From a bacterium (GTDB taxonomy: Bacteria; SAR324; NAC60-12), in NCBI GenBank assembly GCA_965205865.1, contig CBDBHR010000017.1, forward strand, positions 32,776-96,775: a stretch of 64,000 bases of DNA, given 5' to 3'. The position numbers were made by a program, and so were the translations under genes. The number at the start of each line of letters is the position of its first letter. The stretch's first letter is position 1. Under the pieces are notes generated by a model. It made no database searches. It had not been told where the DNA came from and saw only the letters and a list, made by a program, of their open reading frames with translations. This document shows, piece by piece, positions 1 to 55,034 of the stretch.

Positions 1-3000
1 AGATTTGATACTCCCCTTCGGCTTTCAGAAAAAGTGCTTGATGGCGTAAGGAAAACTGAGGAAATTGTTCCAATTCGTCAAAAAAGCTGATCGCCTCTTT
101 GTAGTTTTTCTTTTCCCATTCCTGCTGACCGATTTGGTAGTAAAGCGAAGCAATTCTTGCTTTCGCTTCTCCTTGATACTGGCTATCCTCCGTTTTAAGA
201 TAATTCTGATAAAGCAGCACGATGGTTTCCATTTGTACTCGATTATGCTGCGACTCGGGTTGACTCATTAAGATTTGATATTCCCCTTCGGCTTTGAGAA
301 AAAGGGCCGGATGGCGTAAGGGGAATTGAGGGAATTGCTCCAGTTCATCAAAAAATGCGATGGCCTCTTTGTAGTTTTGCTGTTCCCATTCATTCTGACC
401 GAGTTGATAATACAGGGAAGCAATCCTCGCTTTGGCATCATCTTGGAACTGGACATCCTCGGTTTTGAGATAATTCTGATAAAGCTGCGCAATGGCTTCC
501 AGGCGAGCTCGTTCGTGTTGTGATTCAGACTGACTGAGTAATATTTGATATTCCCCTTCGGCTTTGAGAAAGAGGGTGGGATGACGTAAGGGGAACTGAG
601 GAAATTGTTCCAGTTTGTCAAAATACGTGATGGCTTCTTTGTAGTTTTGTTTTTCCCATTCCTGCTGACCGAGTTGATAGTAAAGGGAAGCAATCCTCGC
701 TTTGGCATCGTCTTGATACTGACTGTCCTGGGTCTCCAAATAGTTTTGGTAGAGCTTTACAATGGCTTCCGGACGAACTCGTTTATACCGGGACTCAGGC
801 TGGCTCTGTAAGATTTGATACTCCCCTTCGGCTTTCAGAAAAAGTGTCTGATGGCGTAAGGGGAACTGAGGAAATTGTTCCAATTCGTCAAAAAATGCGA
901 TGGCCTCTTTGTAGTTTTGCTGTTCCCATTCATTCTGACCAAGTTGGTAGTAAAGGGAAGCGATTCTTGCTTTCGCTTCTCCTTGATACTGGCTATCTTC
1001 CGTTTTAAGATAATTCTGATAAAGCAGCACGATGGTTTCCATTTGTACTCGATTATGCTGTGACTCGGGTTGACTCAGTAAGATTTGATATTCCCCTTCG
1101 GCTTTCAGAAAAAGGGTCGGATGGCGTAAGGAGAATTGAGGGAATTGCTCCAGTTCATCAAAAAATGCGATGGCCTCTTTGTAGTTTTGCTGTTCCCATT
1201 CCTGCTGACCGAGTTGATAGTAAAGGGAAGCAATCCTCGCTTTGGCATCATCTTGGTACTGGATGTCCTCGGTTTCGAGATAATTCTGATAAAGCTGCGC
1301 AATGGCTTCCAGGCGAGTTCGTTCGTGCTGCGACTTTGGTAGGTTTCGCAGGATTTGATACTCCCCTTCGGCTTTGAGAAAGAGGGTGGGGTGACGTAAG
1401 GGGAACTGAGGGAATTGTTCCAGTTTGTCGAAAAACGCGATGGCTTCTTTATAGTTTTGTTTTTCCCATTCCTGCTGACCGATTTGATAGTAAAGCGAAG
1501 CAATCCTCGAATTGGCATCGTCTTGATACTGACCATCCTGGGTCTCCAAATAGTTTTGGTAGAGTTGTACAATGGCTTCCTGACGAGTTCGATTGCGCTG
1601 CGACTCAGGCTGACTGAGTAAGATTTGATATCCTCCTTCAGCTATGAGAAAGAGGGCGGAGTGGCGTAAAGGAAATAAAGGGAATTGCTTGAGTTCGTTA
1701 AAAAAAACGATCGCTTCCTTATAGTTTTGTTTTTCCCATTCACTTTGACCGAGCTGATAATACAGAGAAGCGATCCTTCCTCTGGCATCGCTTCGGAATT
1801 GGTTGTCCTCGGTTTTCAAATAGTTTTGATAGAGCTGAATGATGGCTTCCATGCGCACTCGATTATTCTGAAACTCAGGCTGGTTGAGCAAAATTTTATA
1901 CTCTCCTTCAGCTTTGAGAAAGAGGGTGGATTGGCGCAGAGGGAATTGAGGGAATTGCTCGAGTTCGTCAAAATAAGCAATCGCTTCTCTATAGTTTTGC
2001 TTTTCCCATTCATTCTGCCCGAGTTGGTAGTAAAGGGAAGCAATCCTCGCTCTGGCATCGTTTCGGTATTGGCTGTCCTGAGTTTCCAAATAGTTTTGGT
2101 AGATCTGCGCAAGGGCTTCCAAATGAGCTCGTTCGTGCTCTGATTTCGGTTGGCTGAGCATGATCTGATATTCCCCTTCGGCCTTGAGAAAGAGGGCAGG
2201 GTGGCGTAGCGGGAATTGAGGGAATTGTTCCAGTTTGTCAAAAAACGCGATGGCTTCTTTGTAGTTTTGTTTTTCCCATTCCTGCTGACCGATTTGGTAG
2301 TAAAGCGAAGCAATCCTCGAATTTGCATCGCCTTGATATTGACTGTCCTGGGTCTCCAAATAGTTTTGGTAGAGTTGTACAATGGTTTCCAGGTGAACTC
2401 GTTTTTGCTCGGATTCAGGTTGGCTGAGCAAGATTTGATACTCTCCTTCGGCTTTGAGAAAGAGAGTGGGGTGGCGCAGAGGGAATTGGGGAAACTGCTC
2501 GAGTTCGTCAAAATAAGCAATCGCTTCTTTGTAGTTTTGCTTTTCCCATTCATTCTGGCCGAGTTGATAGTAAAGGGAAGCAACCCTCGCTCCGGCATCG
2601 CTTTTGTATTGGTTGTCCCCGGTTTTGAGATAGTTCTGATAGAGTTGAATGATGCCTTCCAGGCGAACCCGATTGCGTTGAGGTTCAGGCTGGCTGAGCA
2701 AGATCTGATATTCCCCTTCGGCCTTGAGAAAAAGAGTGGTGTGGCGCAGAGGGAATTGGGGAAAATGCTCGAGTTCGTCAAAATAAGCAATCGCTTCTTT
2801 ATAGTTTTGCTTTTCCCATTCATTCTGGCCAATTTGATAGTAAAGGGAAGCAATCCTCGCTCTGGCATCGTTACGGTATTGGCTGTCCCGAGTCTCCAAA
2901 TAGTTTTGGTAGAGTCTCACGATGGCTTCCAGGCGAACCCGATTGTGTTGAGGCTCAGGCTGGCTGAGCAAGATTTGATACTCCCCTTCGGCTTTGAGGA

Positions 3001-6000
3001 AGAGGGTGGGATGACGTAAGGGGAATTGAGGGAATTGTTCCAATTCGTCAAAAAAGCTGATCGCCTCTTTGTAGTTTTTCTTTTCCCATTCCTGCTGACC
3101 GATTTGGTAGTAAAGCGAAGCAATTCTTGCTTTCGCTTCTCCTTGATACTGGCTATCCTCCGTTTTAAGATAATTCTGATAAAGCAGCACGATGGTTTCC
3201 ATTTGTACTCGATTATGCTGCGACTCGGGTTGACTCATTAAGATTTGATATTCCCCTTCGGCTTTGAGAAAAAGGGTCGGATGGCGTAAGGGGAATTGAG
3301 GGAATTGCTCCAGTTCATCAAAAAATGCGATGGCCTCTTTGTAATTTTGCTTTTTCCATTCTTGCTGACCGAGTTGATAATACAGGGAAGCAATCCTCGC
3401 TTTGGCATCATCTTGGAACTGGACATCCTCGGTTTTGAGATAATTCCGATAAAGCTGCGCAATGGCTTCCAGGCGAGCTCGTTCGTGTTGTGATTCAGGC
3501 TGACCGAGTAAAATTTGATATTCCCCTTCGGCTTTGAGAAAAAGGGTTGGGTGACGTAAGGGGAATTGAGGAAATTGTTCCAGTTTGTCAAAAAACGCGA
3601 CGGCTTCTTTGTAGTTTTGTTTTTCCCATTCCTGTTGACCGATTTGATAGTACAGCGAAGCAATCCTCGAATTGGCATCGTCTTGATACTGACTGTCCTG
3701 GGTCTCCAAATAGTTTTGGTAGAGCTGTACAATGGCTTCCGGACGAACTGGTTTATACCGGGACTCAGGCTGGCTCTGTAAGATTTGATACTCCCCTTCG
3801 GCTTTCAGAAAAAGTGCTTGATGGCGTAAGGAAAACTGAGGAAATTGTTCCAATTCGTCAAAAAAGCTGATCGCCTCTTTGTAGTTTTTCTTTTCCCATT
3901 CCTGCTGACCGATTTGGTAGTAAAGCGAAGCAATTCTTGCTTTCGCTTCTCCTTGATACTGGCTATCCTCCGTTTTAAGATAATTCTGATAAAGCAGCAC
4001 GATGGTTTCCATTTGTACTCGATTATGCTGCGACTCGGGTTGACTCATTAAGATTTGATATTCCCCTTCGGCTTTGAGAAAAAGGGCCGGATGGCGTAAG
4101 GGGAATTGAGGGAATTGCTCCAGTTCATCAAAAAATGCGATGGCCTCTTTGTAGTTTTGCTGTTCCCATTCATTCTGACCGAGTTGATAATACAGGGAAG
4201 CAATCCTCGCTTTGGCATCATCTTGGAACTGGACATCCTCGGTTTTGAGATAATTCTGATAAAGCTGCGCAATGGCTTCCAGGCGAGCTCGTTCGTGTTG
4301 TGATTCAGACTGACTGAGTAATATTTGATATTCCCCTTCGGCTTTGAGAAAGAGGGTGGGATGACGTAAGGGGAACTGAGGAAATTGTTCCAGTTTGTCA
4401 AAATACGTGATGGCTTCTTTGTAGTTTTGTTTTTCCCATTCCTGCTGACCGAGTTGATAGTAAAGGGAAGCAATCCTCGCTTTGGCATCGTCTTGATACT
4501 GACTGTCCTGGGTCTCCAAATAGTTTTGGTAGAGCTTTACAATGGCTTCCGGACGAACTCGTTTATACCGGGACTCAGGCTGGCTCTGTAAGATTTGATA
4601 CTCCCCTTCGGCTTTCAGAAAAAGTGTCTGATGGCGTAAGGGGAACTGAGGAAATTGTTCCAATTCGTCAAAAAATGCGATGGCCTCTTTGTAGTTTTGC
4701 TGTTCCCATTCATTCTGACCAAGTTGGTAGTAAAGGGAAGCGATTCTTGCTTTCGCTTCTCCTTGATACTGGCTATCTTCCGTTTTAAGATAATTCTGAT
4801 AAAGCAGCACGATGGTTTCCATTTGTACTCGATTATGCTGTGACTCGGGTTGACTCAGTAAGATTTGATATTCCCCTTCGGCTTTCAGAAAAAGGGTCGG
4901 ATGGCGTAAGGAGAATTGAGGGAATTGCTCCAGTTCATCAAAAAATGCGATGGCCTCTTTGTAGTTTTGCTGTTCCCATTCCTGCTGACCGAGTTGATAG
5001 TAAAGGGAAGCAATCCTCGCTTTGGCATCATCTTGGTACTGGATGTCCTCGGTTTCGAGATAATTCTGATAAAGCTGCGCAATGGCTTCCAGGCGAGTTC
5101 GTTCGTGCTGCGACTTTGGTAGGTTTCGCAGGATTTGATACTCCCCTTCGGCTTTGAGAAAGAGGGTGGGGTGACGTAAGGGGAACTGAGGGAATTGTTC
5201 CAGTTTGTCGAAAAACGCGATGGCTTCTTTATAGTTTTGTTTTTCCCATTCCTGCTGACCGATTTGATAGTAAAGCGAAGCAATCCTCGAATTGGCATCG
5301 TCTTGATACTGACCATCCTGGGTCTCCAAATAGTTTTGGTAGAGTTGTACAATGGCTTCCTGACGAGTTCGATTGCGCTGCGACTCAGGCTGACTGAGTA
5401 AGATTTGATATCCTCCTTCAGCTATGAGAAAGAGGGCGGAGTGGCGTAAAGGAAATAAAGGGAATTGCTTGAGTTCGTTAAAAAAAACGATCGCTTCCTT
5501 ATAGTTTTGTTTTTCCCATTCACTTTGACCGAGCTGATAATACAGAGAAGCGATCCTTCCTCTGGCATCGCTTCGGAATTGGTTGTCCTCGGTTTTCAAA
5601 TAGTTTTGATAGAGCTGAATGATGGCTTCCATGCGCACTCGATTATTCTGAAACTCAGGCTGGTTGAGCAAAATTTTATACTCTCCTTCAGCTTTGAGAA
5701 AGAGGGTGGATTGGCGCAGAGGGAATTGAGGGAATTGCTCGAGTTCGTCAAAATAAGCAATCGCTTCTCTATAGTTTTGCTTTTCCCATTCATTCTGCCC
5801 GAGTTGGTAGTAAAGGGAAGCAATCCTCGCTCTGGCATCGTTTCGGTATTGGCTGTCCTGAGTTTCCAAATAGTTTTGGTAGATCTGCGCAAGGGCTTCC
5901 AAATGAGCTCGTTCGTGCTCTGATTTCGGTTGGCTGAGCATGATCTGATATTCCCCTTCGGCCTTGAGAAAGAGGGCAGGGTGGCGTAGCGGGAATTGAG

Positions 6001-9000
6001 GGAATTGTTCCAGTTTGTCAAAAAACGCGATGGCTTCTTTGTAGTTTTGTTTTTCCCATTCCTGCTGACCGATTTGGTAGTAAAGCGAAGCAATCCTCGA
6101 ATTTGCATCGCCTTGATATTGACTGTCCTGGGTCTCCAAATAGTTTTGGTAGAGTTGTACAATGGTTTCCAGGTGAACTCGTTTTTGCTCGGATTCAGGT
6201 TGGCTGAGCAAGATTTGATACTCTCCTTCGGCTTTGAGAAAGAGAGTGGGGTGGCGCAGAGGGAATTGGGGAAACTGCTCGAGTTCGTCAAAATAAGCAA
6301 TCGCTTCTTTGTAGTTTTGCTTTTCCCATTCATTCTGGCCGAGTTGATAGTAAAGGGAAGCAACCCTCGCTCCGGCATCGCTTTTGTATTGGTTGTCCCC
6401 GGTTTTGAGATAGTTCTGATAGAGTTGAATGATGCCTTCCAGGCGAACCCGATTGCGTTGAGGTTCAGGCTGGCTGAGCAAGATCTGATATTCCCCTTCG
6501 GCCTTGAGAAAAAGAGTGGTGTGGCGCAGAGGGAATTGGGGAAAATGCTCGAGTTCGTCAAAATAAGCAATCGCTTCTTTATAGTTTTGCTTTTCCCATT
6601 CATTCTGGCCAATTTGATAGTAAAGGGAAGCAATCCTCGCTCTGGCATCGTTACGGTATTGGCTGTCCCGAGTCTCCAAATAGTTTTGGTAGAGTCTCAC
6701 GATGGCTTCCAGGCGAACCCGATTGTGTTGAGGCTCAGGCTGGCTGAGCAAGATTTGATACTCCCCTTCGGCTTTGAGGAAGAGGGTGGGATGACGTAAG
6801 GGGAATTGAGGGAATTGTTCCAGTTCATCAAAAAAAGCGATGGCCTCTTTGTAGTTTTGTTTTTCCCATTCCTGCTGACCGAGCTGATAGTAAAGCGAAG
6901 CAATCCTCGCTCTGGCATCGTTCCGGTACTGATGGTCCTGGGTCTCCAAATAGTTTTGGTAAAGCCTCACAATAGCTTCCAGGCGAGTTCGTTCGTGCTG
7001 CGACTCAGGCTGGTTGAGCAAGATTTGATACTCTCCTTCCGCTTTGAGAAAGAGAGCAGGGTGGCGCAGAGGGAATTGGGGAAATTGCTCGAGCTCGTCA
7101 AAAAAAGCAATGGCTTCCTTGTAATTTTCTTGTTCCCACTCATTCTGACCAAGTTGGTAGTAAAGAGACGCGATCCTTGCTCGGGAATCGTCTTGGTACC
7201 GATTGTCCTCGGTTTTGAGATAGTTCTGATAAAGATATATAACTTTTTCCATACCTGCCCGATCGTGCTGCGATTCAGGCTCGCTGAGCAGGATTTGATA
7301 CTCCCCTTCGGCTTTCAGAAAAAGGGTGGAATGGAGCAGGGGAAATTGGGGGAATTGCTCGAGTTCGTTAAAAAATGCGATGGCTTCTTTGTAGTTTTGC
7401 TTTTCCCACTCTTGTTGACCAAGTTGATAGTATAGCAACGCGACTCGAGATCTGGCATCATCTTGATACTGGTCGTCCTCGGTTTTGAGATAGTTCTGAT
7501 AGAGTTGAATAATGTCCTCTACGCGAACTCGTTTATTCCGGGACTCAGGTTGACTGAGCAGGATTTGATACTCCCCCTCGGCTTTCAGAAAAAGGATGGA
7601 GTGACGCAGAGGAAACTGAGGGAATTGCTCCAATTCGTCAAAAAAAGCGATGGCTTCTTCAAAGTTTTTCTCATGCCATTCATACTGCCCGAGTTGATAG
7701 TAAAGCGAAGCGACCCGGGCTTCAGCATCACTTCGGTATTGGCTACTTTCGGTTTGGAGATAGTTTAGATAGAGCTGTATGATGTTTTCTATGCGAGCTT
7801 TGTTGTGCGGGGAATCCGGCTCGCTGAGCAGGATTTGATACTCCCCTTCGGCTTTCAGAAAAAGGATGGAGATGCGTTGGGGGAACTGTGGGAATTGCTC
7901 GAGTTCGTCAAAAAAAGCAATCGCTTCTTTGTATTTTTGCTTATCCCACTCACTCAGCCCGAGCTGGTAGTAAAGCGAAGCGATCCTTGCGCTGGCATCG
8001 CTTTGATACTGGCTGTCCCCGGTTTTGAGATAGTTTTTATAAAGCTGCGCAATAGTTTCCAGGTGAGCTCGTTTTTGCTCGGATTCAGGCCGACCGAGTG
8101 AGATTTGATACTCCCCTTCGGCTTTCAGAAAAAGGGTGGGGTGGCGCAGTGGAAACTGAGGAAATTGCTCGAGTTCGTCAAAAAAAGCAATCGCTTCTTT
8201 GTAGTTTTTCTCTTCCCATTCATTCTGCCCGAGTTGGTAGAATAGTGAAGCGATCCTCGCTCTGGCATCGGTTTCGTACTTGCTGTCCTCGGTTCCCAGA
8301 TAATTTTTAAAGAGTTGTACAATGCCTTCCATGCGAACTCGATTGTGCTGCGATTTAGGCTGGTTCATCAAGATTTGGTATTCCCCTTCGGCTTTCAGAA
8401 AAAGGGCGGGGTGGCGCAGTGGAAACTGAGGAAATTGCTCGAGTTTATCAAAAAAAGTGATCGCTTCTTTGAAATTTTGCTTTTCCCATTCCTCCTGTCC
8501 GAGCTGGTAATAAAGCGAGGCGACCCTCGCCCTGGCATCGGCTTGGTACTGATCGTCCTCCGTTATGAGATAGTTCTGATAGAGCTGAATGATGGCTTCC
8601 AGGCGAACTCGTTTATGCTGCAACTCGGGCTGGGTCAGCAGGATTTGATATTCCCCTTCTGCCTTGAGAAAAAGGGTGGGGTGACGCAAGGGGAATTGAG
8701 GAAATTGTTCCAGTTCGTCAAAAAAAGCAATCGCCTCTTTGAAGTTTTGCCTTTTCCACTGCAGTTGAGCAAGTTGATAGTAAAGCAAAGCAATCCTCGC
8801 ATTGGCATCGTCCACGTACTGGCTGTCCTCGGTATTGAGATAGTTCTGATAGAGTATCACGATTGTTTCCATGCGAGCCCCTTTGTGCTGGGACTGAGGC
8901 TCGCTCAGCAGAATTTGATACTCCCCTTCGGCTTTCAGAAAAAGAGCCGGGTGGCGCAGGGGAAACTGAGGAAATTGCTCGAGTTCGTCAAAAAACGCGA

Positions 9001-12000
9001 TGGCCTCTTTGTAGTTTTGCTTGTCCCATTCAATTTGACCGAGTTGGTAGTAAAGCGAAGCGATCCTCCCTCTGGCGTCGTCTTGGTACTCGCTGTCCTC
9101 GGTATCGAGATAGTTCTGATAAAGTTGAATGATGCCTTCCAGGCGAGTTCGTTTGCGCTGGGACTCAGGCTGATTGAGCAGGATTTGATACTCCCCTTCG
9201 GCTTTCAGAAAAAGGGTGGGATGGCGCAAATGGAATTGAGGAAATTGTTCTAATTCATCAAAAAAGGCGATGGCCTCTTCGTAGTTTTGCTTGTCCCATT
9301 CAATTTGACCGAGCTGGTAGTATAGCGAAGCGATCCTCGCTCTGGCATCCCCTTCGTATCGGCTATCTCCGGTTTTGAGATAGTTCTGATAGAGCTGAAT
9401 GATGGCTTCCAGGCTAACTCGTTTGTGCTGGGTCTCGGGCTGACTCAGCAGGATTTGATATTCCCCTTCGGCTTTCAGAAAGAGTGCCGGGTGGCGTAGA
9501 TGAAAAAGAGGGAATTGCTCTAGTTCGTCAAAAAAAGCAATCGCTTCTTTGTAGTTTTGCTTTTTCCACTGCAGTTGACCAAGTTGATAGTAAAGCAAAG
9601 CAATCCTCGCATTAGCATCGTCTTCGTACTGGCTGTCCTTGGTATTGAGATAGTTCTGATAGAGTTTCACGATGGCTTCCAAATGAGCCACTTTGTGCTG
9701 GGACTGAGGCTCGCTCATCAGTATTTGATACTCCCCTTCGGCTTTCAGAAAGAGAGCCGGGTGGCGCAGGGGAAACTGAGGGAATTGCTCGAGTTCGTCA
9801 AAAAACGCGATGGCCTCTTGGTAGTTTTGCCTGTCCCATTCAATTTGACCGAGTTGGTAGTATAGCGAAGCGATCCTCGCTCTGGCGTCGTCTTGGTACT
9901 TGCTGTCCTCGGTTTTGAGATAGTTCTGATAGAGCTGAATAATGCCTTCCAGGCGAGTTCGTTTGTGCTGGGACTCAGGCTGATTGAGCAGGATTTGATA
10001 CTCCCCTTCGGCTTTCAGAAAAATGGTGGGATGGCGCAACGGGAATTGGGGAAATTGTTCCAATTCATCAAAAAACGCGATGGCCTCTTCGTAGTTTTGC
10101 TTGTCCCATTCAAATTGACCGAGTTGGTAGTAAAGCGAAGCGATCCTCGCTCTGGCATCGTTCCGGAACTGCTTGTCCTTTGTCTCCAAATAGTTTTGGT
10201 AGAGTCGCACGATGGTTTCCAAGCGCACTCGTGACTGCTGGGTCTGAGGCTGGCTGAGCAAGATCTGATACTCTCCTTCGGCTTTCAGAAAAAGGGTGGG
10301 GTGACGCAAAGGGAATTGTGGGAATTGCTCCAGCTTGTCGAAAAAAGCGATCGCATCTTTGTAGTTTTGCTTCTCCCATTCAATTTGACCGATCTGGTAG
10401 TAAAGCAATGCGATCCTCGCTCTGGCGTCGTCTTGGTATTGGTCGTCTTGAGTCTCTAAATAGTTTTGGTAGAGTAGCACGATGGCTTCCAAACGAGTCC
10501 GTTTCTGTTGGGATTCGGGCAGGCCGAACAAGATTTGATATTCTCCTTCTGCTTTGAGAAAGAGAGTGGGGTGACGCAGGGGGAATTGGGGGAATTGCTC
10601 CAATTTATCAAAAAAACCGATAGCTTCCTTGTAATTTTGCTTTTTCCATTCATTCTGACCAAGCCGATAATAAAGCACGGCAATCCTTGCATTGGCATCA
10701 CTTTGATACTGGATGTTCCCGGTTTTAAGATAATTCTGAAAGAGAAGTACGATGGCTTCCAGGCGAACTCGTTTGTGCTCAGATTCTGGCAGGCTGAGCA
10801 GGATCTGATACTCCCCTTCGGCTTTGAGAAAGAGAGCCGGGTGGCGTAAAGGGAATCCCGGAAATTGTTCCAACTCATCAAAAAAAGTGATGGCTTCCCT
10901 GTAATTATGCCGTTGCCACTCCTGCTGACCCAGTTGATAATAAAGCAAAGCAACCCTCGCCTTAGCATCGTCTTGGTACTGATTGTCCTTGGTTTTCAAA
11001 TAGTTCTGATAGAGTTGGACAATAGCTTCCAGGCGAGCTCGTTTGTGCTGTGATTTAGGCCGCTTGAGCAAGATTTGATACTCGCCTTCGGCTCTGAGAA
11101 AAAGAGTCGGGTGGCGGTGGGGAAATTGAGGAAATTGCTCGAGTTTCTCAAAAAATGCGATGGCCTCTTTGTAGTTTTGCTTTCCCCATTCATTCTGACC
11201 GAGTTGATAGTAAAGCAAAGCGATCCTCGCTCTGGCGTCGTCTTGGTACTCGCTGTCCTCGGTTTTGAGATAGTTCTGATAGAGCTGTACAATGGCTTCC
11301 AGGCGAGATCTTTTTTGCCGTAACTCAGCCAGACTGAGCATGATTTGATACTCTCCTTCGGCTTTGAGAAAGAGTGCCGGATAGCGTAATGGAAATTGAG
11401 GAAATTGCTCCAATTTCTCAAAAAAAGTAATGGCCTCTTTGTAATTTTGCTTTTTCCATTCAATTTGACCGAGTTGGTAGTAAAGCGATGCAATCCTCGC
11501 GTTTGCTTCTCTTTGGTACTGGTCGTCCTGGGTCTCCAAGTAGTTTTGATAGAGTTGCGCGATGGTTTCCATTTCAACTCGACTATGCCGGGACTCAGGC
11601 CGACTGAGAAAGATTTGATACTTCCCTTCGGCTTTGAGAAAAAGGGTGGGTTGACGCAGAGGGAAATGAGGGAATTGCTCGAGTTCGTCAAAAAAAACGA
11701 TGGCCTCTTTGTAGTTTTGCTTCTCCCATTCCATTTGACCGAGTTGGTAATAAAGCGAAGCAATCCTCGCTTTGGCATAGTCTTGGTACTGGCTGTCCTC
11801 GGTTTTGAGATAGTTCTGATAGAGCTGTACAATAGCTTCCATACGAGCTCCTTTTTGCTGCAATTCAAGCTGACTGAACAGGATTTGATACTCGCCTTCG
11901 GCTTTAAGAAAGAGGGTGGAGTGACGCAGGGGAAACTTTGGGAATTGCTCCAATTTTTCAAATAAAGCGATCGCTTCTTCGTAGTTTTGCTTTTCCCACT

Positions 12001-12840
12001 CCCTTTGACCAAGCTGGTAATAAAGCGAAGCAATTCTCGCTTTAGCCTCGTCTTGGTACTGACGGTCCTTGGTTTTGAGGTAATTTTGATAGAGCAGAAT
12101 GATGGTTTCCATGAGAGCCCCTTTGTGCTGGGACTCAGGTACGCGCAGCAAGATTAGATATTCCCCTTCGGCTTTGAGAAACAAAGCGGGATTCCTTAGA
12201 GGGAACCGCGGGAATTGCTCGAGTTCGTCAAAAAAAGCGATCGCTTCTTTATAGTTTTGCTGTTTCCACTCTTTCTGCCCGAGCTGATAGTAAAGCGTGG
12301 CAATCCTCGCTTTACTATCTTCCAGGTACTGGTTGTCCGTGGTTTTAAGATAATTCTGAAAGAGAAGTACGATGGCTTCCAGACGAGCCTTATTGTGCTG
12401 CGACTCAGGTTGGCTGAGCAATATTTGATACTCCCCTTCGGCTTTGAGAAAAAGAGTGGGATGGCGTAAGGGAAATTGAGGGAATTGCTCGAGTTCGTCA
12501 AAAAAAGCGATTGCTTTTTTGTAATTTTTTCGTTTCCACTCACTCTGGCCGAGTTGGTAGTAAAGCGTTGCGATCCTCTCATTAGCAATTTTTTGATATT
12601 GGTTGTCCCCGGTTTTGAGGTAGTTTTGATAGAGCCCTGCGATAGCTTCCATACGAGCCCCTTTTTTGCGGGTCTCAGACTCACCCAGCAATATTTGATA
12701 CTCCCCTTCAGCTTTGAGAAAGAGAGTGGAATCGCGCAGGGGGAACTGAGGGAATTGCTCCAATTTGTCAAAAAAAGCAATCGCTTCTTTGAAGTTTTTT
12801 TGCCCCCACTCATTTAAGGCGAGTTGGTAATAAATTTTGG
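1..12840. repeat. Coding tandem repeat, 270-bp unit, about 47.5 copies, with 810-bp and 3,780-bp higher-order periods
   Basis: A gatttgata-type anchor recurs every 270 bp from position 2 to 12692. 1-3042 matches 3781-6822 and gives identical shadow ORFs at offset 3780. Confidence 0.97.
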
Positions 12841-13540
12841 CCTGACGGTCTTCGTCTTGAATATGGTTTACATATTCCTGCAACCATTTTTTCGCTTTCT
12901 GAAATTCTTGTTGATGCTGATAGGCCAATCCCAACAGATGGAGCCACTCAATTTTCATCTCCTTGGTCAGGTGTTCTTTGGTTGTTATTTTGGAAAGTGT
13001 ATTACTGGCTTTCTGATAAAGAGGAATCGCTTCTGAAGATTGATTTTGACGGGATAATTCCGCTGCATAAAAAAAAGAGTTTCCTAACCAATAGAGGGCA
13101 ATTTCCCGATTACGACTTTCTGGAAATTTTTTTGTGAACTCCCCTAAAATTGAAATGCTTCGCTCGTATTGCAACAAGCTTGCTCTCAATAGACCTTCCC
13201 GAAACATCGCATCTTCAGTCCATTGACCCGTTGGATATTCTTGACGATAATTTTGGTATTCGTCCGCAACCCCTGACTTGTCTTCCGAACTCAATTCTCC
13301 GGACCGTATTTTCAAGAAAATAACTGCCTCTCGAAATTGACCCTCAGGAAATTTATTGAGGTATTCTTCTGCTTCCTCTTGAGCAAGTTCATGAAATCCG
13401 TCCTTGAAAAATCCCTGAATTATTTGAAACTGTTCTTCCTCAGTTAAAGAAGCCAATGTATTGATAGGAAAAAATAACCCCATGAGGAGTAGTAAGAAGA
13501 TTATGAAATCCACAAAATAATATTTATTTAAAGAGGCCAT
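1..13540 (-). CDS. Giant secreted TPR/alpha-solenoid repeat protein (partial, at least 4,513 aa, runs off the left end)
   Basis: Manual translation from ATG 13540 gives MASLNKYYFVDFIIFLLLLMGLFFPINTLA-SLTEEEQF (signal-peptide-like), then TPR-like segments (YLNKFPEGQFREAVIFL, YRQEYPTGQWTEDAMF), then 90-aa repeats. The same frame reads LFLKAEGEYQI at positions 34-2. The ORF track lists no terminated ORF in this frame, consistent with no internal stop. Confidence 0.93.
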   Translation of the reverse strand, partial: MASLNKYYFVDFIIFLLLLMGLFFPINTLASLTEEEQFQIIQGFFKDGFHELAQEEAEEYLNKFPEGQFREAVIFLKIRSGELSSEDKSGVADEYQNYRQEYPTGQWTEDAMFREGLLRASLLQYERSISILGEFTKKFPESRNREIALYWLGNSFFYAAELSRQNQSSEAIPLYQKASNTLSKITTKEHLTKEMKIEWLHLLGLAYQHQQEFQKAKKWLQEYVNHIQDEDRQAKIYYQLALNEWGQKNFKEAIAFFDKLEQFPQFPLRDSTLFLKAEGEYQILLGESETRKKGARMEAIAGLYQNYLKTGDNQYQKIANERIATLYYQLGQSEWKRKNYKKAIAFFDELEQFPQFPLRHPTLFLKAEGEYQILLSQPESQHNKARLEAIVLLFQNYLKTTDNQYLEDSKARIATLYYQLGQKEWKQQNYKEAIAFFDELEQFPRFPLRNPALFLKAEGEYLILLRVPESQHKGALMETIILLYQNYLKTKDRQYQDEAKARIASLYYQLGQREWEKQNYEEAIALFEKLEQFPKFPLRHSTLFLKAEGEYQILFSQLELQQKGARMEAIVQLYQNYLKTEDSQYQDYAKARIASLYYQLGQMEWEKQNYKEAIVFFDELEQFPHFPLRQPTLFLKAEGKYQIFLSRPESRHSRVEMETIAQLYQNYLETQDDQYQREANARIASLYYQLGQIEWKKQNYKEAITFFEKLEQFPQFPLRYPALFLKAEGEYQIMLSLAELRQKRSRLEAIVQLYQNYLKTEDSEYQDDARARIALLYYQLGQNEWGKQNYKEAIAFFEKLEQFPQFPHRHPTLFLRAEGEYQILLKRPKSQHKRARLEAIVQLYQNYLKTKDNQYQDDAKARVALLYYQLGQQEWQRHNYREAITFFDELEQFPGFPLRHPALFLKAEGEYQILLSLPESEHKRVRLEAIVLLFQNYLKTGNIQYQSDANARIAVLYYRLGQNEWKKQNYKEAIGFFDKLEQFPQFPLRHPTLFLKAEGEYQILFGLPESQQKRTRLEAIVLLYQNYLETQDDQYQDDARARIALLYYQIGQIEWEKQNYKDAIAFFDKLEQFPQFPLRHPTLFLKAEGEYQILLSQPQTQQSRVRLETIVRLYQNYLETKDKQFRNDARARIASLYYQLGQFEWDKQNYEEAIAFFDELEQFPQFPLRHPTIFLKAEGEYQILLNQPESQHKRTRLEGIIQLYQNYLKTEDSKYQDDARARIASLYYQLGQIEWDRQNYQEAIAFFDELEQFPQFPLRHPALFLKAEGEYQILMSEPQSQHKVAHLEAIVKLYQNYLNTKDSQYEDDANARIALLYYQLGQLQWKKQNYKEAIAFFDELEQFPLFHLRHPALFLKAEGEYQILLSQPETQHKRVSLEAIIQLYQNYLKTGDSRYEGDARARIASLYYQLGQIEWDKQNYEEAIAFFDELEQFPQFHLRHPTLFLKAEGEYQILLNQPESQRKRTRLEGIIQLYQNYLDTEDSEYQDDARGRIASLYYQLGQIEWDKQNYKEAIAFFDELEQFPQFPLRHPALFLKAEGEYQILLSEPQSQHKGARMETIVILYQNYLNTEDSQYVDDANARIALLYYQLAQLQWKRQNFKEAIAFFDELEQFPQFPLRHPTLFLKAEGEYQILLTQPELQHKRVRLEAIIQLYQNYLITEDDQYQADARARVASLYYQLGQEEWEKQNFKEAITFFDKLEQFPQFPLRHPALFLKAEGEYQILMNQPKSQHNRVRMEGIVQLFKNYLGTEDSKYETDARARIASLFYQLGQNEWEEKNYKEAIAFFDELEQFPQFPLRHPTLFLKAEGEYQISLGRPESEQKRAHLETIAQLYKNYLKTGDSQYQSDASARIASLYYQLGLSEWDKQKYKEAIAFFDELEQFPQFPQRISILFLKAEGEYQILLSEPDSPHNKARIENIIQLYLNYLQTESSQYRSDAEARVASLYYQLGQYEWHEKNFEEAIAFFDELEQFPQFPLRHSILFLKAEGEYQILLSQPESRNKRVRVEDIIQLYQNYLKTEDDQYQDDARSRVALLYYQLGQQEWEKQNYKEAIAFFNELEQFPQFPLLHSTLFLKAEGEYQILLSEPESQHDRAGMEKVIYLYQNYLKTEDNRYQDDSRARIASLYYQLGQNEWEQENYKEAIAFFDELEQFPQFPLRHPALFLKAEGEYQILLNQPESQHERTRLEAIVRLYQNYLETQDHQYRNDARARIASLYYQLGQQEWEKQNYKEAIAFFDELEQFPQFPLRHPTLFLKAEGEYQILLSQPEPQHNRVRLEAIVRLYQNYLETRDSQYRNDARARIASLYYQIGQNEWEKQNYKEAIAYFDELEHFPQFPLRHTTLFLKAEGEYQILLSQPEPQRNRVRLEGIIQLYQNYLKTGDNQYKSDAGARVASLYYQLGQNEWEKQNYKEAIAYFDELEQFPQFPLRHPTLFLKAEGEYQILLSQPESEQKRVHLETIVQLYQNYLETQDSQYQGDANSRIASLYYQIGQQEWEKQNYKEAIAFFDKLEQFPQFPLRHPALFLKAEGEYQIMLSQPKSEHERAHLEALAQIYQNYLETQDSQYRNDARARIASLYYQLGQNEWEKQNYREAIAYFDELEQFPQFPLRQSTLFLKAEGEYKILLNQPEFQNNRVRMEAIIQLYQNYLKTEDNQFRSDARGRIASLYYQLGQSEWEKQNYKEAIVFFNELKQFPLFPLRHSALFLIAEGGYQILLSQPESQRNRTRQEAIVQLYQNYLETQDGQYQDDANSRIASLYYQIGQQEWEKQNYKEAIAFFDKLEQFPQFPLRHPTLFLKAEGEYQILRNLPKSQHERTRLEAIAQLYQNYLETEDIQYQDDAKARIASLYYQLGQQEWEQQNYKEAIAFFDELEQFPQFSLRHPTLFLKAEGEYQILLSQPESQHNRVQMETIVLLYQNYLKTEDSQYQGEAKARIASLYYQLGQNEWEQQNYKEAIAFFDELEQFPQFPLRHQTLFLKAEGEYQILQSQPESRYKRVRPEAIVKLYQNYLETQDSQYQDDAKARIASLYYQLGQQEWEKQNYKEAITYFDKLEQFPQFPLRHPTLFLKAEGEYQILLSQSESQHERARLEAIAQLYQNYLKTEDVQFQDDAKARIASLYYQLGQNEWEQQNYKEAIAFFDELEQFPQFPLRHPALFLKAEGEYQILMSQPESQHNRVQMETIVLLYQNYLKTEDSQYQGEAKARIASLYYQIGQQEWEKKNYKEAISFFDELEQFPQFSLRHQALFLKAEGEYQILQSQPESRYKPVRPEAIVQLYQNYLETQDSQYQDDANSRIASLYYQIGQQEWEKQNYKEAVAFFDKLEQFPQFPLRHPTLFLKAEGEYQILLGQPESQHERARLEAIAQLYRNYLKTEDVQFQDDAKARIASLYYQLGQQEWKKQNYKEAIAFFDELEQFPQFPLRHPTLFLKAEGEYQILMSQPESQHNRVQMETIVLLYQNYLKTEDSQYQGEAKARIASLYYQIGQQEWEKKNYKEAISFFDELEQFPQFPLRHPTLFLKAEGEYQILLSQPEPQHNRVRLEAIVRLYQNYLETRDSQYRNDARARIASLYYQIGQNEWEKQNYKEAIAYFDELEHFPQFPLRHTTLFLKAEGEYQILLSQPEPQRNRVRLEGIIQLYQNYLKTGDNQYKSDAGARVASLYYQLGQNEWEKQNYKEAIAYFDELEQFPQFPLRHPTLFLKAEGEYQILLSQPESEQKRVHLETIVQLYQNYLETQDSQYQGDANSRIASLYYQIGQQEWEKQNYKEAIAFFDKLEQFPQFPLRHPALFLKAEGEYQIMLSQPKSEHERAHLEALAQIYQNYLETQDSQYRNDARARIASLYYQLGQNEWEKQNYREAIAYFDELEQFPQFPLRQSTLFLKAEGEYKILLNQPEFQNNRVRMEAIIQLYQNYLKTEDNQFRSDARGRIASLYYQLGQSEWEKQNYKEAIVFFNELKQFPLFPLRHSALFLIAEGGYQILLSQPESQRNRTRQEAIVQLYQNYLETQDGQYQDDANSRIASLYYQIGQQEWEKQNYKEAIAFFDKLEQFPQFPLRHPTLFLKAEGEYQILRNLPKSQHERTRLEAIAQLYQNYLETEDIQYQDDAKARIASLYYQLGQQEWEQQNYKEAIAFFDELEQFPQFSLRHPTLFLKAEGEYQILLSQPESQHNRVQMETIVLLYQNYLKTEDSQYQGEAKARIASLYYQLGQNEWEQQNYKEAIAFFDELEQFPQFPLRHQTLFLKAEGEYQILQSQPESRYKRVRPEAIVKLYQNYLETQDSQYQDDAKARIASLYYQLGQQEWEKQNYKEAITYFDKLEQFPQFPLRHPTLFLKAEGEYQILLSQSESQHERARLEAIAQLYQNYLKTEDVQFQDDAKARIASLYYQLGQNEWEQQNYKEAIAFFDELEQFPQFPLRHPALFLKAEGEYQILMSQPESQHNRVQMETIVLLYQNYLKTEDSQYQGEAKARIASLYYQIGQQEWEKKNYKEAISFFDELEQFPQFSLRHQALFLKAEGEYQI

Positions 13541-13566: not shown

Positions 13567-13881
13567 TCAGTGAAATATTTTGATTTGTTGAATTACATTT
13601 TCCCAGCAAGCGCTGTTGATGTTGTCAACACGAACGACCTTATTTCGGTTGTTTACGCCATGCTGGATGGAAATATTGGAATGGGGAACTTTTAGCGCTT
13701 TGGCGAGAAAAGAAATGCGCTGTTTGTTTGCCTGTCTTCCTTTGGGGGCGGCAGTAAGACTTAGTTTGATTTTATTGTCAAAGACACGTCCCCATGACAC
13801 TTTGGAAGCGCGTGGTTGGACATATAAGTAGAGAGTGAGTTGGTTCCCTTCTAATACAAAACCGTTTTCTGCAGACATCAT
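13567..13881 (-). CDS. yggU: YggU/DUF167 family protein
   Basis: LYVQPRASK...KIKLSLTAAP...ANKQ...LAKALKVPHSNISIQHG pattern; ATG at 13881. Confidence 0.8.
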   Translation of the reverse strand: MMSAENGFVLEGNQLTLYLYVQPRASKVSWGRVFDNKIKLSLTAAPKGRQANKQRISFLAKALKVPHSNISIQHGVNNRNKVVRVDNINSACWENVIQQIKIFH

Positions 13882-14371
13882 TGCACCTGAAATATGAACC
13901 AATCAATTATTCGGAATTTCCCCTTTGCAATATCTTTGCATGAACTTGACCACTTTGCTGCTTACAAAAAATTTTGTATTGAAAAGCGCTATGAATCAAG
14001 AATCTTCAAGTTTCAGCACTTCTTTCTGGCCGGAGATGTCATCAAGTCTCATTGGAAGGCGTGAATTTATAATTCGACGGATTTCATTCCTTTCTTCAAA
14101 ATATTCCTCGTTTTGTTCTGCGAATTAGGCTCCCTTTTTCAACTTCATAATTGTATGGCTTGATTGGCTGGTCAGGTTTTTTAAACAGTAGTCACTGATT
14201 TGCTGAAAAAGGTTCTCTACAGGTGAACTGGATGATCGTGAGTCAATTGTTGCAAAGGCTAAAAAAATAATGAATACGTTCTCTGTTGAACGATCATACA
14301 AACTTCTGTAGACTAATAAGATAATTTACAACAATTCAAAAAAATAGTCATCCGGAATTAGAGATAATTGT

Positions 14372-22732: not shown

Positions 22733-24191
22733 GTGACATTCGACTCCATTGACGGTGTGGAGCAAATCGTGAGCAATAAAATCAAACTGACGAAATACGA
22801 GTTGGAAATGTTGGCAGGGAAGCATGGCATTCCTCGCCGTTGGGCGATGGAACAGCAAATGCTCGTGGCCGGGTTTTTCGATGCGGAAGACTTTGTCGAA
22901 GTCTCGCGGGCGCACATCATGCGTGATACCGAATCTCTGGGAGAAGCAGGAATCGAGCAACTGGAGTACCTTGCCAATCAACCGGAAGGGGATAACAAAG
23001 TAGTAATTCCAACGGTTACCGACCCACGTGGGCTCGACATGAGTATCTATCAAAAACTCAATCAATCCGAAGAGTTTGCGAAACGCGAGCGACGCGCAGC
23101 CAAGGCCCTTTGCGCGATGGGCATCCTGATGACGGACACCTGTATTAATTATCAGACGATATCACCACCGGTTTTTGGGCAGCATCTGGCTTTTGGCGAT
23201 ACTGGCTCCGTCATTTATGCCAATAGCGTATTTGGAGCCCGCAGCAATTTCGAAGGGGGACCTGCGGCACTGGCTGCAGCTTTCACCGGTCGCGTGCCGA
23301 AATACGGACACCTGTATTAATTATCAGACGATATCACCACCGGTTTTTGGGCAGCATCTGGCTTTTGGCGATACTGGCTCCGTCATTTATGCCAATAGCG
23401 TATTTGGAGCCCGCAGCAATTTCGAAGGGGGACCTGCGGCACTGGCTGCAGCTTTCACCGGTCGCGTGCCGAAATATGGATGCCATCTCTCGAAAAATCG
23501 TAAAGCGACCCATCAGTTTCATGTTGATCATTGCCCAAGAACATTATCAGACTGGGGCGCTTTGGGTGCGGTAATTGGTAAAATGGCCGGATCCTACTGG
23601 TCGGTTCCCGCAATCACAGGAATTGAAAACTGCCCTACGTCGGATGAACTCAAGCACTTCGGGGCGGCTCTGGCGAGTTTCGGTTCCGTCCCCCTCTATC
23701 ATATGGAGGGCGTGACGCCGGAAGCCCTGGACATTCGAAACGTTTCGGATTCTGCCGATATTGATCATGCCACCATAAGGGATCGGGACATTCGGGGGTT
23801 TTACGCTTCATTTCAGCAATTCGAAAAGGTCGATGTAGTGGTCTTTGCGGCCCCGCAGTTGTCGCTATTCGAAATTCAACATATCGTCAGCATTATAAAC
23901 GGACGGCAAATCAGCAACTCGACCGCTCTTTTGATCGCAACTTCTCCGGAAATCAAGTCCGCGTGCGATAGATTCGGCATAACTGCCGAACTGGAAGATT
24001 GGGGAGCAATTGTTCTAACTGGCGTTTGCTTTTACCAGATGTACGCCCGCGAGCTTCGGGAAGCGAATGGTTGGGATCGTTTGGTGAGCAATTCCGCAAA
24101 ACTGGTCAACATCATCGCCGGATATGGATATGAACCGGTGCTTGCTACCACAGAGCAGTGTGTCGAAGCAGCGATAACAGGAAAGCTGTAA
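22733..24191 (+). pseudogene. Aconitase X catalytic subunit (DUF521), frameshifted by a 172-bp tandem duplication
   Basis: TCINY, YANSVFGARSNFEGGPAALAAA, LKHFGAALASFG and SNSAK motifs, split over ORFs 22733-23320 and 23175-24191. Confidence 0.85.
23132..23475. repeat. 172-bp perfect tandem duplication
   Basis: acggacacctgtattaattatcagacg... starts at both 23132 and 23304. Confidence 0.95.
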
Positions 24192-24807: not shown

Positions 24808-25910
24808 ATGCCTGCGCTCAATCTCAAACCGACCCACAAGGTCATCAAAGATTACTATCATTTCCTGCAACAATTTGACAAATTAAGTTTCACCCATGAA
24901 AGTTCTGTGCGACCGGCATTCCATTCCTTGCTCGAAGGGTGTGGAAAACAGTGCGGTTGGAAGCTGATTCCCGAATATTCCATCAACCTCGCTCTAAACA
25001 AACGGATTGTCGTCGATGGCGCATTGATCGACGATTTTAAATTGACGCACGGTTACTGGGAGGCTAAGGACATCCACGACGATTTGCCTGGAGAAGTGCT
25101 TCGCAAGTTCGAGGCGGGCTATCCGCAGACCAACATTCTCTTCCAAACCCCAAAACGAGCTATTATTTGGCAGAACGAACAGCGAGTGCTCGATAATGAC
25201 CTGAGCGATCCGGAACAATTAATCGAGACGCTGCAGACCTTTTTTTCATACCGTCCGCAACAATACGCCGAATGGCAGGAGGCAGTTGCGCAGTTCAAAG
25301 ACAAAGTTCCTGACATCGGAAGTGGAGTGGCGAAGCTGATTCAGGAGGAACGAAGGAGCAACAGAGTCTTTACCAACGCCTTTAAGGACTTTTTGGAGAA
25401 ATGTCGCGCCTCGATCAATCCCAACCTCTCTGAGGTTGCCGTCGAGGAGATGCTGGTGCAACATCTCCTGACAGAACGGATTTTCCGGAAGGTCTTTGAC
25501 AACCCCGACTTCACCGACCGTAATGTCATTGCCAGAGAAATCGAAACGGTGATCCGGGCCCTCACCTCACACGCGTTCAGTCGACGTGATTTCCTTAAAA
25601 GCCTGGACCACTTCTATGTCGCAATCGGGCGAACGGCGGCAACCATCAACAATTTTTCACAGAAACAGCACTTCCTCAACACGGTCTACGAACAGTTTTT
25701 CCAGGGCTTTTCGGTCGAGGTTGCCGATACGCATGGTATCGTCTACACGCCACAATCCATTGTAGAATTCATAGTGAAGAGCGTAGAGCAGATCCTACGA
25801 GAAGAATTTGATTGTTCTCTTTCAGACGAGGGAGTGCGCATCATCGACCCGTTCGTCGGCACCGGCAATTTCATCGTCTGCATCATGCAAGAAATCCGCA
25901 AAACCGCGCT
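24808..25910 (+). pseudogene. Truncated type IIG/ISP-like restriction-modification enzyme (nuclease plus N6-MTase N-terminal part)
   Basis: VDG...GYWEAKD nuclease motif, HGIVYTPQSIV, SAM motif I IIDPFVGTGNF; the sequence switches to IS1 DNA at about 25910. Confidence 0.85.
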
Positions 25911-26575
25911 GGGGGGCGGGGCTTGCGAATGCCCCCGGCGCCACAGACTCCCGAAGGCCTCAACGCTCGCCTTGGTCTCGTCTTTCCCGAGGCCCCTGGC
26001 GGCCCGCAGCCGGGTGTCGATGTCGGTCACGGTCGAGCGCCAGAAGGAGCCGCTTGTTTCGGTTTCTCGATAGTTTTTTTTGAACCCTTGTTCTGCACAT
26101 AAGCCCACAGGCCATCGATTTGAGCGCGCCGCACCTGGTGCTTGCCGAGCAGGAACTCCTCGACTTCTTCGGCGTGTTCCCCGGCTTCGCGGACCCAAGA
26201 GAGGATCGTGTCGGTCTTCACTCCCTTGGTCCGGGAGACACTGCTGATGCGCGATCCTTCCGCAATCTGCGACAGGGCATCGAGGATCGTCTCCTCGGGA
26301 CTGCGCTTCCGGTAGAACAGGGTGCCCTTGGTCTCCGTGAAGCTTGAGCCGCAGACCTTGCAGCGGAACCTTTGACGACCCGATCGGGTCTTGCCGTGCT
26401 TGATGATCATGCCAGGGGAGCCTTCCTCTTCGCATTGGTCGTGGTTGGAGCAAGATGAGTTGGGACAAAAGTCTCCCACTTGGGCCAGTCTTCGCATTGG
26501 ATACTTTCAGAAACAGGGTGAACACAACCCTTAAGAATAACCAAAACCGCAACAACACTCAACAGGGTGACTACC
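25911..26575 (-). mobile_element. Truncated IS1-family element with an A8C frameshift signal
   Basis: InsA-like Zn ribbon and HTH (CPNSSC...RQRFRCKVC, 26027-26497), slippery TCAAAAAAAAC at about 26073-26083, InsB-like continuation in another frame, and a GGTAGTCACCC-type end at 26575. Confidence 0.8.
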
Positions 26576-27674: not shown

Positions 27675-28562
27675 GAACCTGTTTGAAAGTCATTTAATTC
27701 TCTTTAACATCAAGCAAATCATAGCGACATAGATCATGTTTTCAGAGTTTTTTGTTTTTCTTTCATAATCGATGTTGAGTCTTCGATACCATCCAAACCA
27801 GGAAAAGGTTCTTTCGACGATCCACCTTTTCGGTAGGACCTGAAAGCCCGTTCCTTGGAGGTTTAGAGTGATCTCAAGTTCACATTGAAATCGATTCCAT
27901 AACCATTGGGCTAATTCCCCTCGATAACCTCCGTCGGCCCAAATCATCTGAATCGAAAAGAACCAGCTAAACATCGATTCCAAAAGATCGTAAGCACTTT
28001 TGGAATCGGAGGCATTGGCATCAGTGACTTTAACCATGAGAGGAATTCCCGAGATATCAACAGCTACATGCCTTTTATGCCCTTTGATTCGTTTATTTCC
28101 ATCAAAACCTCGACTATCAGCCAGTTCCGTGGTTTTGACGGATTGACTATCAATCATTGCAGCACTGGGTTCGGGAGCTCTGCCCATTTCTATTCGGGTT
28201 TGCCGATGGAGAAACTGGTGAATCAGGAACCAAGTGTCGTTCTTGCACCATTTATTGTAGTGGTAATAAACACTTTGCCAAGGAGGAAAATCTTTGGGAA
28301 GCATTCTCCATTGACAACCCGTGGTCACTACATACAAAATGGCGTTTATGATAACTCGTAGTTCCCATTTACGAAGGTGGGCTCCACGAGTTGAAAGTTC
28401 GGGAAGGTACTCTTGAAGTCTTTCCCATTGTTTATCACTGACATCACTGTTATAACCTGAACGTTCCATGTTCACTCCTTGTTATTAAGGCTTCATTTCT
28501 CTCAAAATGAATGTGACATGGAACACTTCCAATTGGAAGCTCAACTTATTTCAAACAGGTTC
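27675..28562 (-). mobile_element. IS5-family (IS1031-like) element, copy 1; transposase 27690-28475
   Basis: Inverted repeats GAACCTGTTTGAAA / TTTCAAACAGGTTC with TAA on both flanks; transposase motifs GCQWRMLP, IDSQSVK, WADGGY and RWIVERTFSW. Confidence 0.95.
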
Positions 28563-30902: not shown

Positions 30903-31080
30903 TCAAGACCTGACCCCTTTTCCATAGCATGCATGCCTAATTGTCGCGCGCCTTCTTCGCTGCGGAAAGTACCTCTGGTAGACGCGTACCTTCATCATGA
31001 GTACGTAAAAAGAGAGGGTCTTGCCAAGACCGTCTAGATTCAAGCTGTGACAAGCGCCACCCTGTAGAACGTCATCGATA
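30903..31080 (-). pseudogene. C-terminal fragment of an AtuA-related protein
   Basis: IDDVLQGGACHSLNLDGLGKTLSFYVLMMKV resembles the AtuA C-terminal motif (from recall); cut at the IS630 end. Confidence 0.5.
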
Positions 31081-31661: not shown

Positions 31662-31664
31662 TAA

Positions 31665-54903: not shown

Positions 54904-55034
54904 GACACCCGAACTCCTCACTCGACTCTTTACAAATTCACATCAAGTTCATATTTTCCAAACAACAGATGGATCTCGATTTACCGGAGTGGGCGCCGCG
55001 ATCTCATGTGGATCAGTCAAGTGTATTCTCTCAC

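Follow-up and report, generated by a model that had tools for sequence, protein, structure and literature searches.

A 64,000-bp stretch of the genome of a SAR324 bacterium (the window; contig C17:32776-96775 of genome G000, negative positions denoting contig sequence beyond the window start) carries on its minus strand a giant open reading frame (ORF) of 19,635 bp, predicted to encode a protein of 6,544 amino acids (783 kDa, pI 5.2). A nested repeat in the middle of this gene probably reflects a genuine duplication, in frame and very recent, and the length of the gene is likely still in flux. Taken as a whole, the evidence makes it probable that recombination acted recently, in frame and mid-array, in a likely exported protein predicted to form a tetratricopeptide repeat (TPR)/BamD-like solenoid, most SAR324 forms of which are much shorter.

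A direct repeat of 3,343 bp within a 62-unit array

The array lies in frame within the single ORF and consists of 62 units, spaced by exactly 90 amino acids in 61 of 61 cases; median nucleotide identity between units is 76.7%. The original prediction, made from the sequence without database searches, held that positions 1-3042 are identical to 3781-6822, and the two segments matched letter for letter at an offset of 3,780 bp (14 x 270), against the 76.7% background. On the full contig the near-identical stretch extends further, pairing -300..3042 with 3480..6822 (3,343 bp, 12.4 units, 99.97% identity), and the sole mismatch between the copies (-183/3597) is a Val/Ala difference. The remaining 437 bp of the 3,780-bp period (3043-3479) are about 80% identical to their partners 3,780 bp to either side, which is the background level, and are a near copy of a block 810 bp away (7 mismatches). 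The full tandem 14-mer with a period of 3,780 bp that had been proposed was thus not supported as stated: the arrangement is a direct repeat with an unduplicated 437-bp spacer, and the allele needs a gain of 14 units together with a loss of 3. The features of the gene are as follows.

1..13540, minus strand, running on to a stop at -6094 (C17:26681): giant ORF, with its ATG at 13540
13451..13540, minus strand: hydrophobic segment at the N-terminus, by hydropathy a probable signal peptide of the Sec type
12833..13450, minus strand: N-terminal TPR region, weakly similar to CpoB/YbgF and BamD, below curated cut-offs
1..12832, minus strand, on to -3907: array of 62 units of 270 bp (90 amino acids), residues 237-5816, each unit with four predicted helices (two TPR-like hairpins)
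8783..10132, minus strand: older pair with a three-unit period, units 11-12 versus 14-15, 94% identical, an 810-bp pair lying outside the region first described
3480..6822, minus strand: 5' copy of the 3,343-bp repeat, from the C-terminal part of unit 23 to the N-terminal part of unit 35
4463..5272, minus strand: ABC block 1, units 29-31
3653..4462, minus strand: ABC block 2, units 32-34
3033..3652, minus strand: ABC block 3, incomplete (units 35 and 36 and the N-terminal part, about 27 codons, of unit 37)
3043..3479, minus strand: 437-bp spacer, a remnant of the third ABC block, without a duplicate at offset 3,780
3033..3042, minus strand: junction at which the array jumps back by 14 units, from a C-type unit to unit 23, with 10 bp of perfect in-register identity, unit 34 serving as proxy for the lost donor
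1..3042, minus strand, on to -300: 3' copy of the 3,343-bp repeat, from the C-terminal part of unit 37 to the N-terminal part of unit 49, with one mismatch at -183

The order of units is 1-28, ABC (29-31), ABC (32-34), AB (35, 36), a hybrid unit 37 that starts as a C-type unit and ends as unit 23, units 24-34 repeated (38-48), and 49-62. Three copies of the three-unit block ABC had been predicted (about 3031-3840, 3841-4650 and 4651-5400). Blocks do exist at those positions and are 96.3%, 89.3% and 89.1% identical, but the third is incomplete. The 3' repeat copy contains only two ABC blocks and part of an A unit; the ABC triplication is older than the 3,343-bp duplication.

Alleles of different length among close relatives

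When long homologues were searched for, three clusters came up, two of them 97% identical and the third 74%, and their 14 members were mapped unit by unit. Five proteins, each from a different assembly, have 51 units (5,553-5,554 amino acids) in the order 1-28, three full ABC blocks, 49-62. A 69-unit allele was found in four assemblies, as two intact proteins of 7,174 amino acids and as two split-ORF pairs in the same order, both members of each pair being listed with one common contig size. Its order is 1-29, five six-unit blocks (B, C, 49, 50, 51, 52), 53-62, and the blocks are 94.6-99.6% identical as protein. Two fragments were not diagnostic of length, and a third species has a protein of 5,914 amino acids with 55 units and no high-identity block. 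Terminal identity to the 62-unit protein is 94-98% in the seven full-length 51- and 69-unit proteins, and the neighbouring trpF cluster is 97-99% identical.

Compared unit by unit, the 62-unit allele agrees with a 51-unit allele that gained 14 units and lost 3, for a net gain of 11. The first 30 amino acids of unit 37 are 97% identical to unit 37 of the 51-unit allele (allele A), and the remainder is 98% identical to unit 23 versus 77%; unit 48 is 98% identical to unit 34 versus 93% to unit 37. Judging by the order of unit types, the 69-unit allele would need a loss as well as gains, because it contains both early-type and late-type C units. The split pair P0207+P0210 resembles a 51-unit allele at about 99% over units 1-31 and the 69-unit alleles thereafter, an apparent crossover between strains at the same hot spot (unit 32) or a chimeric assembly.

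These alleles provide the comparison of copy number between strains that the original prediction had suggested, with 51, 62 and 69 units among close relatives. They also bear on its description of the gene as a satellite-like higher-order repeat (HOR). The five six-unit blocks of the 69-unit relatives do resemble a small HOR, but the gene described here has two block copies, one of them incomplete, and for it the term is overstated. Such a process is rarely caught with alleles side by side: at one site we see a three-unit triplication, a six-unit block repeated five times and a +14/-3 event.

A sister species of fixed length

The orthologue in G001, a genome of the same genus (93% complete, one contig), encodes 5,217 amino acids with 47 units and no block repeat. 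Its cluster also holds one more intact 47-unit protein at 98.4% identity, two split sets that show this order as well, a more distant set, likewise collinear and about 90% identical, and some fragments. Across the three species we observed no allele below 47 units. The variation was accordion-like, as predicted, in that strains differ at 51, 62 and 69 units, but a dedicated accordion system is not supported: the sister species stays at 47 collinear units in every readable assembly, and nothing points to selection on an exact length.

The difference in length stability tracks unit identity. The median identity between units is about 76% in the 62-unit array and 69% in the 47-unit sister array, and exact in-register runs of at least 25 bp numbered 364 among 1,225 unit pairs here (counted with the second repeat copy left out) versus 53 among 1,081 in the sister species. 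Terminal units are orthologous between the species (g1/h1 and g62/h47, both starred for support), while those of the interior are mixed, their collinearity being only weakly above chance (p 0.013). The contrast between the species allows one to test whether the instability of an array is linked to the identity of its units.

Contig depth and the possibility of an assembly artefact

It may be that the second copy of the 3,343-bp repeat was created during assembly, by a loop in the repeat graph or as a chimera of co-occurring strains, but we consider this very unlikely. In its favour, the copies are 99.97% identical, and the assembly (4.74 Mb, 92% complete) comprises 30 contigs with overlapping ends and abundant repeats and transposases. 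Read depth had been proposed as a check, and 20 public runs contained part of the region, all as Logan contigs. Four of these were compared over window positions 2900-8900, which span one repeat copy and unique units (32 of 497 pieces listed). The depth ratio sets single contigs inside the repeat against those that cover unique units within a given run; depth summed over contigs does not amount to a copy number. In each of X1, X3 and X5 a single piece (16.7, 52.4 and 18, respectively) was excluded, as these fall in ABC B/C units that are multi-copy in any allele.

Run X6 had depths of 11, 12 and 9.3 inside the repeat and 5.9, 5.6, 4.5, 4.8 and 4.5 outside it, a ratio of 2.13. Its three listed repeat pieces match the assembly without differences, and its three listed differences from the assembly lie outside the repeat. 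The ratios in X1 (one listed piece and three variant-table values versus six pieces), X3 (2 versus 5 pieces) and X5 (3 versus 4 pieces) were 1.13, 1.24 and 0.92, so that three of the four runs show single depth, which would be compatible with an artefact. In X1 the spacer has single depth (7.96) and the shared B/C piece reaches twice that (16.7), as expected for a 51-unit allele with one copy and three ABC blocks; X1 is another strain, as shown by its point differences, although it has the same sample code as X6. Against an artefact there is the 2.1-fold depth of X6, the run whose contigs match the repeat. Moreover, the junction is a precise in-frame hybrid of units that is absent from the 51-unit alleles, the copies differ at one base, and a chimera of two strains would carry strain differences, as relatives' proteins differ by about 3%. 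For assembly work, this is a case of a 99.97%-identical 3.3-kb repeat that appears real. At window positions 8243 and 8769 all four compared runs differ from the assembly, through either a private change or a consensus error.

Several points weigh against a recent duplication in a length-variable gene. The two copies are not joined by any single read, and the novel junction is crossed by none of the listed contigs. X6 is represented by three pieces against five and may be the source sample. The 62-unit allele is known from this assembly only, and the exact protein is absent from the protein collection. The relatives' alleles were read as proteins, not as DNA, and the relatives are not independent of one another: P0198 and P0203 are 100% identical over units 5-28 and P0204 and P0205 99.7%. 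Because several are near-copies, there are fewer than nine independent strains. All readable members of the 14-member G001 cluster are collinear at 47 units, without length change. Genes downstream of the solenoid orthologue vary, and the neighbours give no consistent pathway. Even so, the three lengths together with the depth of X6 support the proposal of the original prediction that successive in-frame recombination expanded the gene, with the latest event too recent to have diverged.

A probable course of events

Comparison between genomes shows that the core protein has about 1,050-1,150 amino acids and one 90-residue module, which in this genus is amplified to 47-69 copies, and that the three-unit block is triplicated in the common 51-unit allele. 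The mapping of alleles suggests that a 51-unit allele subsequently underwent a 14-unit jump back and a 3-unit skip (net +11), either as two events or as one complex template switch. The jump back would have used some 10 perfectly matching bp within units that are about 80% alike, and the skip two stretches, of 55 and 117 bp, over which units 35 and 49 are identical. Efficient RecA recombination is usually quoted as requiring roughly 25 bp of identity. As the junction falls short of this, the jump back likely proceeded by slippage or homeologous crossover; recA and mutS were both detected in the genome. The copies differ at 1 of 3,343 bases, compared with about 3% between relatives' proteins, and would therefore have arisen in a single clonal line.

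Other strains carry five copies of a different six-unit block at the same site, which again requires both gain and loss. Each duplication would lengthen the available identity and so seed the next, and the 3.3 kb of identity should make the 62-unit allele unstable. Selection would keep the units folded and the rod long while tolerating exact counts of about 47-69; that the rod is kept long is suggested because no shorter allele was seen.

A different history, in which a 14-unit duplication is old and was homogenised recently by a long gene-conversion tract, with no recent change in length, seems extremely improbable. The identity does end abruptly on both sides, short of the full 3,780-bp period, and 246 of 283 allelic amino acid differences recur at the same column in another unit (a weak observation, with no control). 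However, none of the five 51-unit relatives carries units 24-28 twice, whether as an old or a recent duplicate, and each is shorter by exactly 11 units, and we saw no diverged remnant of an older duplicate; the 51-unit alleles already largely refute gene conversion in favour of a recent duplication.

Fold, export and selection on length

The N-terminal hydrophobic stretch is the only one in the 6,544-residue protein by hydropathy, has no lipobox Cys, and would be cleaved after about residue 30 as judged by eye. These sequence features suggest that the protein is likely exported to the periplasm. Cysteines occur only at positions 5933 and 5962, matching two nearly invariant cysteines of the family alignment. 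An AlphaFold2 model of four units (pLDDT 94) showed four helices per unit in a confident continuous helical stack. With this model, Foldseek placed TPR proteins at the top with low TM-scores, BamD chains reaching a TMt of 0.45-0.50, and comparison with consensus TPR superhelices gave TM-scores of 0.23-0.30 (rmsd 16-18 Å). A one-unit orthologue (G007, 1,062 amino acids) was modelled as helical throughout (pLDDT 89.7, pTM 0.48) with no strand-containing domain. Pfam TPR_14 scored 103 bits against a cut-off of 23.5 (residues 1-1180). The BamD/YfiO model TIGR03302 (38.7-41.7 bits versus 81.4), CpoB/YbgF (58.1 versus 90.1) and LapB remained below their cut-offs, and no anchor or secretion-system domain was among the NCBIfam matches for the N-terminus, four units and the C-terminus.

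An array of 62 units contains about 124 hairpins and, assuming typical TPR geometry, would presumably measure on the order of 100 nm if extended. This far exceeds the width of the periplasm, so the array would lie along the envelope, coil, or be exposed. The protein would most likely serve as a periplasmic or envelope scaffold, with extra units lengthening a spacer between the conserved N- and C-terminal TPR regions.

Over 300 random unit pairs dN/dS was 0.115, rising to 0.34 in the most variable residues (49-61, a loop). One might read the alleles as adaptive length tuning of the periscope or ruler kind, in which the protein reaches the surface or spans a set distance and hosts or niches select 51, 62 or 69 units. 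We regard this as unlikely, though worth considering. Three length alleles exist among close relatives, all frames are kept (dN/dS 0.12), nothing shorter than 47 units was seen in the three species although there is ample homology through which the array could collapse, the protein was lengthened independently in other SAR324 genera (36-, 118- and about 290-300-residue modules), and one assembly looks recombinant between two alleles, again at this site. But no surface anchor or export signature was found beyond the signal-like N-terminus, the sister species does not vary, and residues 49-61 show no sign of positive selection. A broader version is equally doubtful: a core envelope solenoid of SAR324 might have been turned into a tunable ruler or tether, with a central hot spot making 3-, 6- and 11-14-unit blocks that strains swap, host or envelope geometry selecting the length, and other genera converging on it with different modules. 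Were the ruler reading true, the gene would be a bacterial protein-coding model in which to watch the birth, turnover and exchange of HORs in wild populations. The length alleles in any case form a natural series with which to ask whether selection acts on how long a giant TPR solenoid is.

Distribution across SAR324

Relatives of the giant protein carry the source label SAR324 cluster bacterium. With a profile of 13 orthologues (E 1e-30), the solenoid gene was found in 73 of 88 genomes of the SAR324 phylum, including 41 of 44 in the family. Open frames listed outside this genus range from about 700 to 2,300 amino acids, usually 1,000-2,300. The 90-residue module is present in 7 copies in G004 and in 3-4 in P0004 and P0010. 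Other genera have other modules, of 36 amino acids (G011, G017, G022), 118 amino acids (G005, G011) or about 290-300 amino acids (G012, G018, P0013, P0014). Independent internal expansions of the orthologue were noted at loci L031, L032, L033, L034, L035, L036 and L049 (G005, G017, G011, G022, G012, G018, G020). This is therefore an uncharacterised, likely exported protein present in most of the phylum and lengthened independently in several genera.

Amidase_3 (PF01520, a cell-separation-type amidase family) had no match in G000 (92% complete) or G001 (93%). It was present in all three other family genomes searched and lies directly after the TPR gene in G004 and G007 (comparison loci L024:8080-9777 and L026:4776-6476). 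A chain-forming or filamentous habit of the genus would be a lead from this absence.

Neighbouring genes and other observations in the genome

Upstream of the giant ORF we noted two features.

13567..13902, minus strand: DUF167 (YggU) gene, directly upstream of the giant ORF and conserved next to the orthologue in nine genomes from two families
13936..14124, minus strand: likely relic of a gene of about 576 amino acids (32% identity over 74 amino acids, E 0.003 in a search against 1.1 kb)

The intact gene of about 576 amino acids is unannotated, 55-69% conserved, and upstream of DUF167 in G004, G007, G009 and G010; it was not found in G000 or G001.

Elsewhere in the window, the aconitase X and biotin carboxylase genes (22733-24191 and 52854-54921) each seem split into two ORFs, and a 172-bp tandem duplication in the aconitase X region (23132-23480, 99% identity) would shift the frame. 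Transposases lie at 27690-28475, 30903-32465, 33694-34365 and 44104-44934, and a type ISP restriction-modification ORF at 24808-26073 is truncated. The split ORFs, transposases and truncated ORF suggest gene decay or sequencing errors. Outside the window, G000 has recent tandem-like duplications of 1.4-4.3 kb and 98.6-99.8% identity (C28:92255-101278, C28:336911-340599, C27:19001-21730). Open frames of about 2,000-2,100 amino acids occur in G000 (C3:90418-96804, C24:161085-167429, C23:17585-23578) and G001 (L022:1268-7609).

Comparison with known systems

BamD/YfiO and CpoB/YbgF share with the solenoid a stack of helical hairpins and likely export, and they are the natural bacterial proteins that match it best in sequence and fold. 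BamD/YfiO has a lipoprotein signal with a lipidated Cys; the solenoid protein is not a BamD, has no lipobox and scores below the cut-offs. Its stacked helix pairs are those of a TPR-like alpha-solenoid (TPR_14, all-helical models and the fold search), whereas it departs from a canonical TPR, with its 34-residue period and superhelix, in having a period of 90 amino acids with four helices.

In alpha-satellite HORs, diverged monomers are arranged in blocks of several monomers, and the blocks resemble one another much more closely than the monomers do. The pattern is shared here (about 76% between monomers and 95-100% between blocks), with blocks at 99.97% and 89-96% against 76.7% between units, and protein blocks at 95-99.6% in the 69-unit allele. 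Satellite-type HORs, however, consist of many complete head-to-tail block copies in non-coding DNA, whereas the present sequence is coding and under purifying selection, has only 2 (incomplete), 3 or 5 block copies, and has no chromatin role.

Among the results listed by the literature searches there was no description of the SAR324 solenoid protein, and the part considered of a preprint on giant bacterial genes (10.1101/2023.11.21.568195) leaves SAR324 unmentioned. According to the part of a source on the TPR family considered here, its members usually have 2-20 TPRs (PMC7279152), compared with about 124 hairpins in this array alone. Faster divergence among paralogous repeats is described in the portion considered of PMC5120217.

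Periscope proteins (SasG, Rib, Esp, CdrA and Sgo_0707) differ in repeat number between strains, for which intragenic recombination has been proposed (Whelan et al. 2021, PMC8201768; this and the following comparisons draw on part of the source). The SAR324 gene likewise has long tandem units whose number differs between close strains, except in the sister species, but its module belongs to a continuous alpha-solenoid and is not a globular domain, the gene is near-universal in its phylum, and neither a surface anchor nor a distal ligand domain was recognised. The term TPR has 0 occurrences in the main text of that paper. Against the Periscope screen (repeats of >50 amino acids, at least 80% identical), the 90-residue units are borderline, at 74.4% median pairwise identity, 75.6% between adjacent units and 83.3% to the consensus. 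The solenoid works like Periscope proteins in its genetics and is a candidate rather than an established member of the class.

Duplication of several units in the middle of an array, with the ends preserved, is a documented rule for repeat proteins (Bjorklund, Ekman and Elofsson 2006, PMC1553488, in the part considered). The solenoid gene follows it in gaining several units at once, mid-array, with its terminal units kept. There the rule was inferred from single, mostly eukaryotic proteomes; here we see three alleles in one bacterial lineage, with blocks of 3, 6 and 14 minus 3 units at one site and both gain and loss. The process is known, and what is new is a population-level snapshot of it in a core TPR solenoid.

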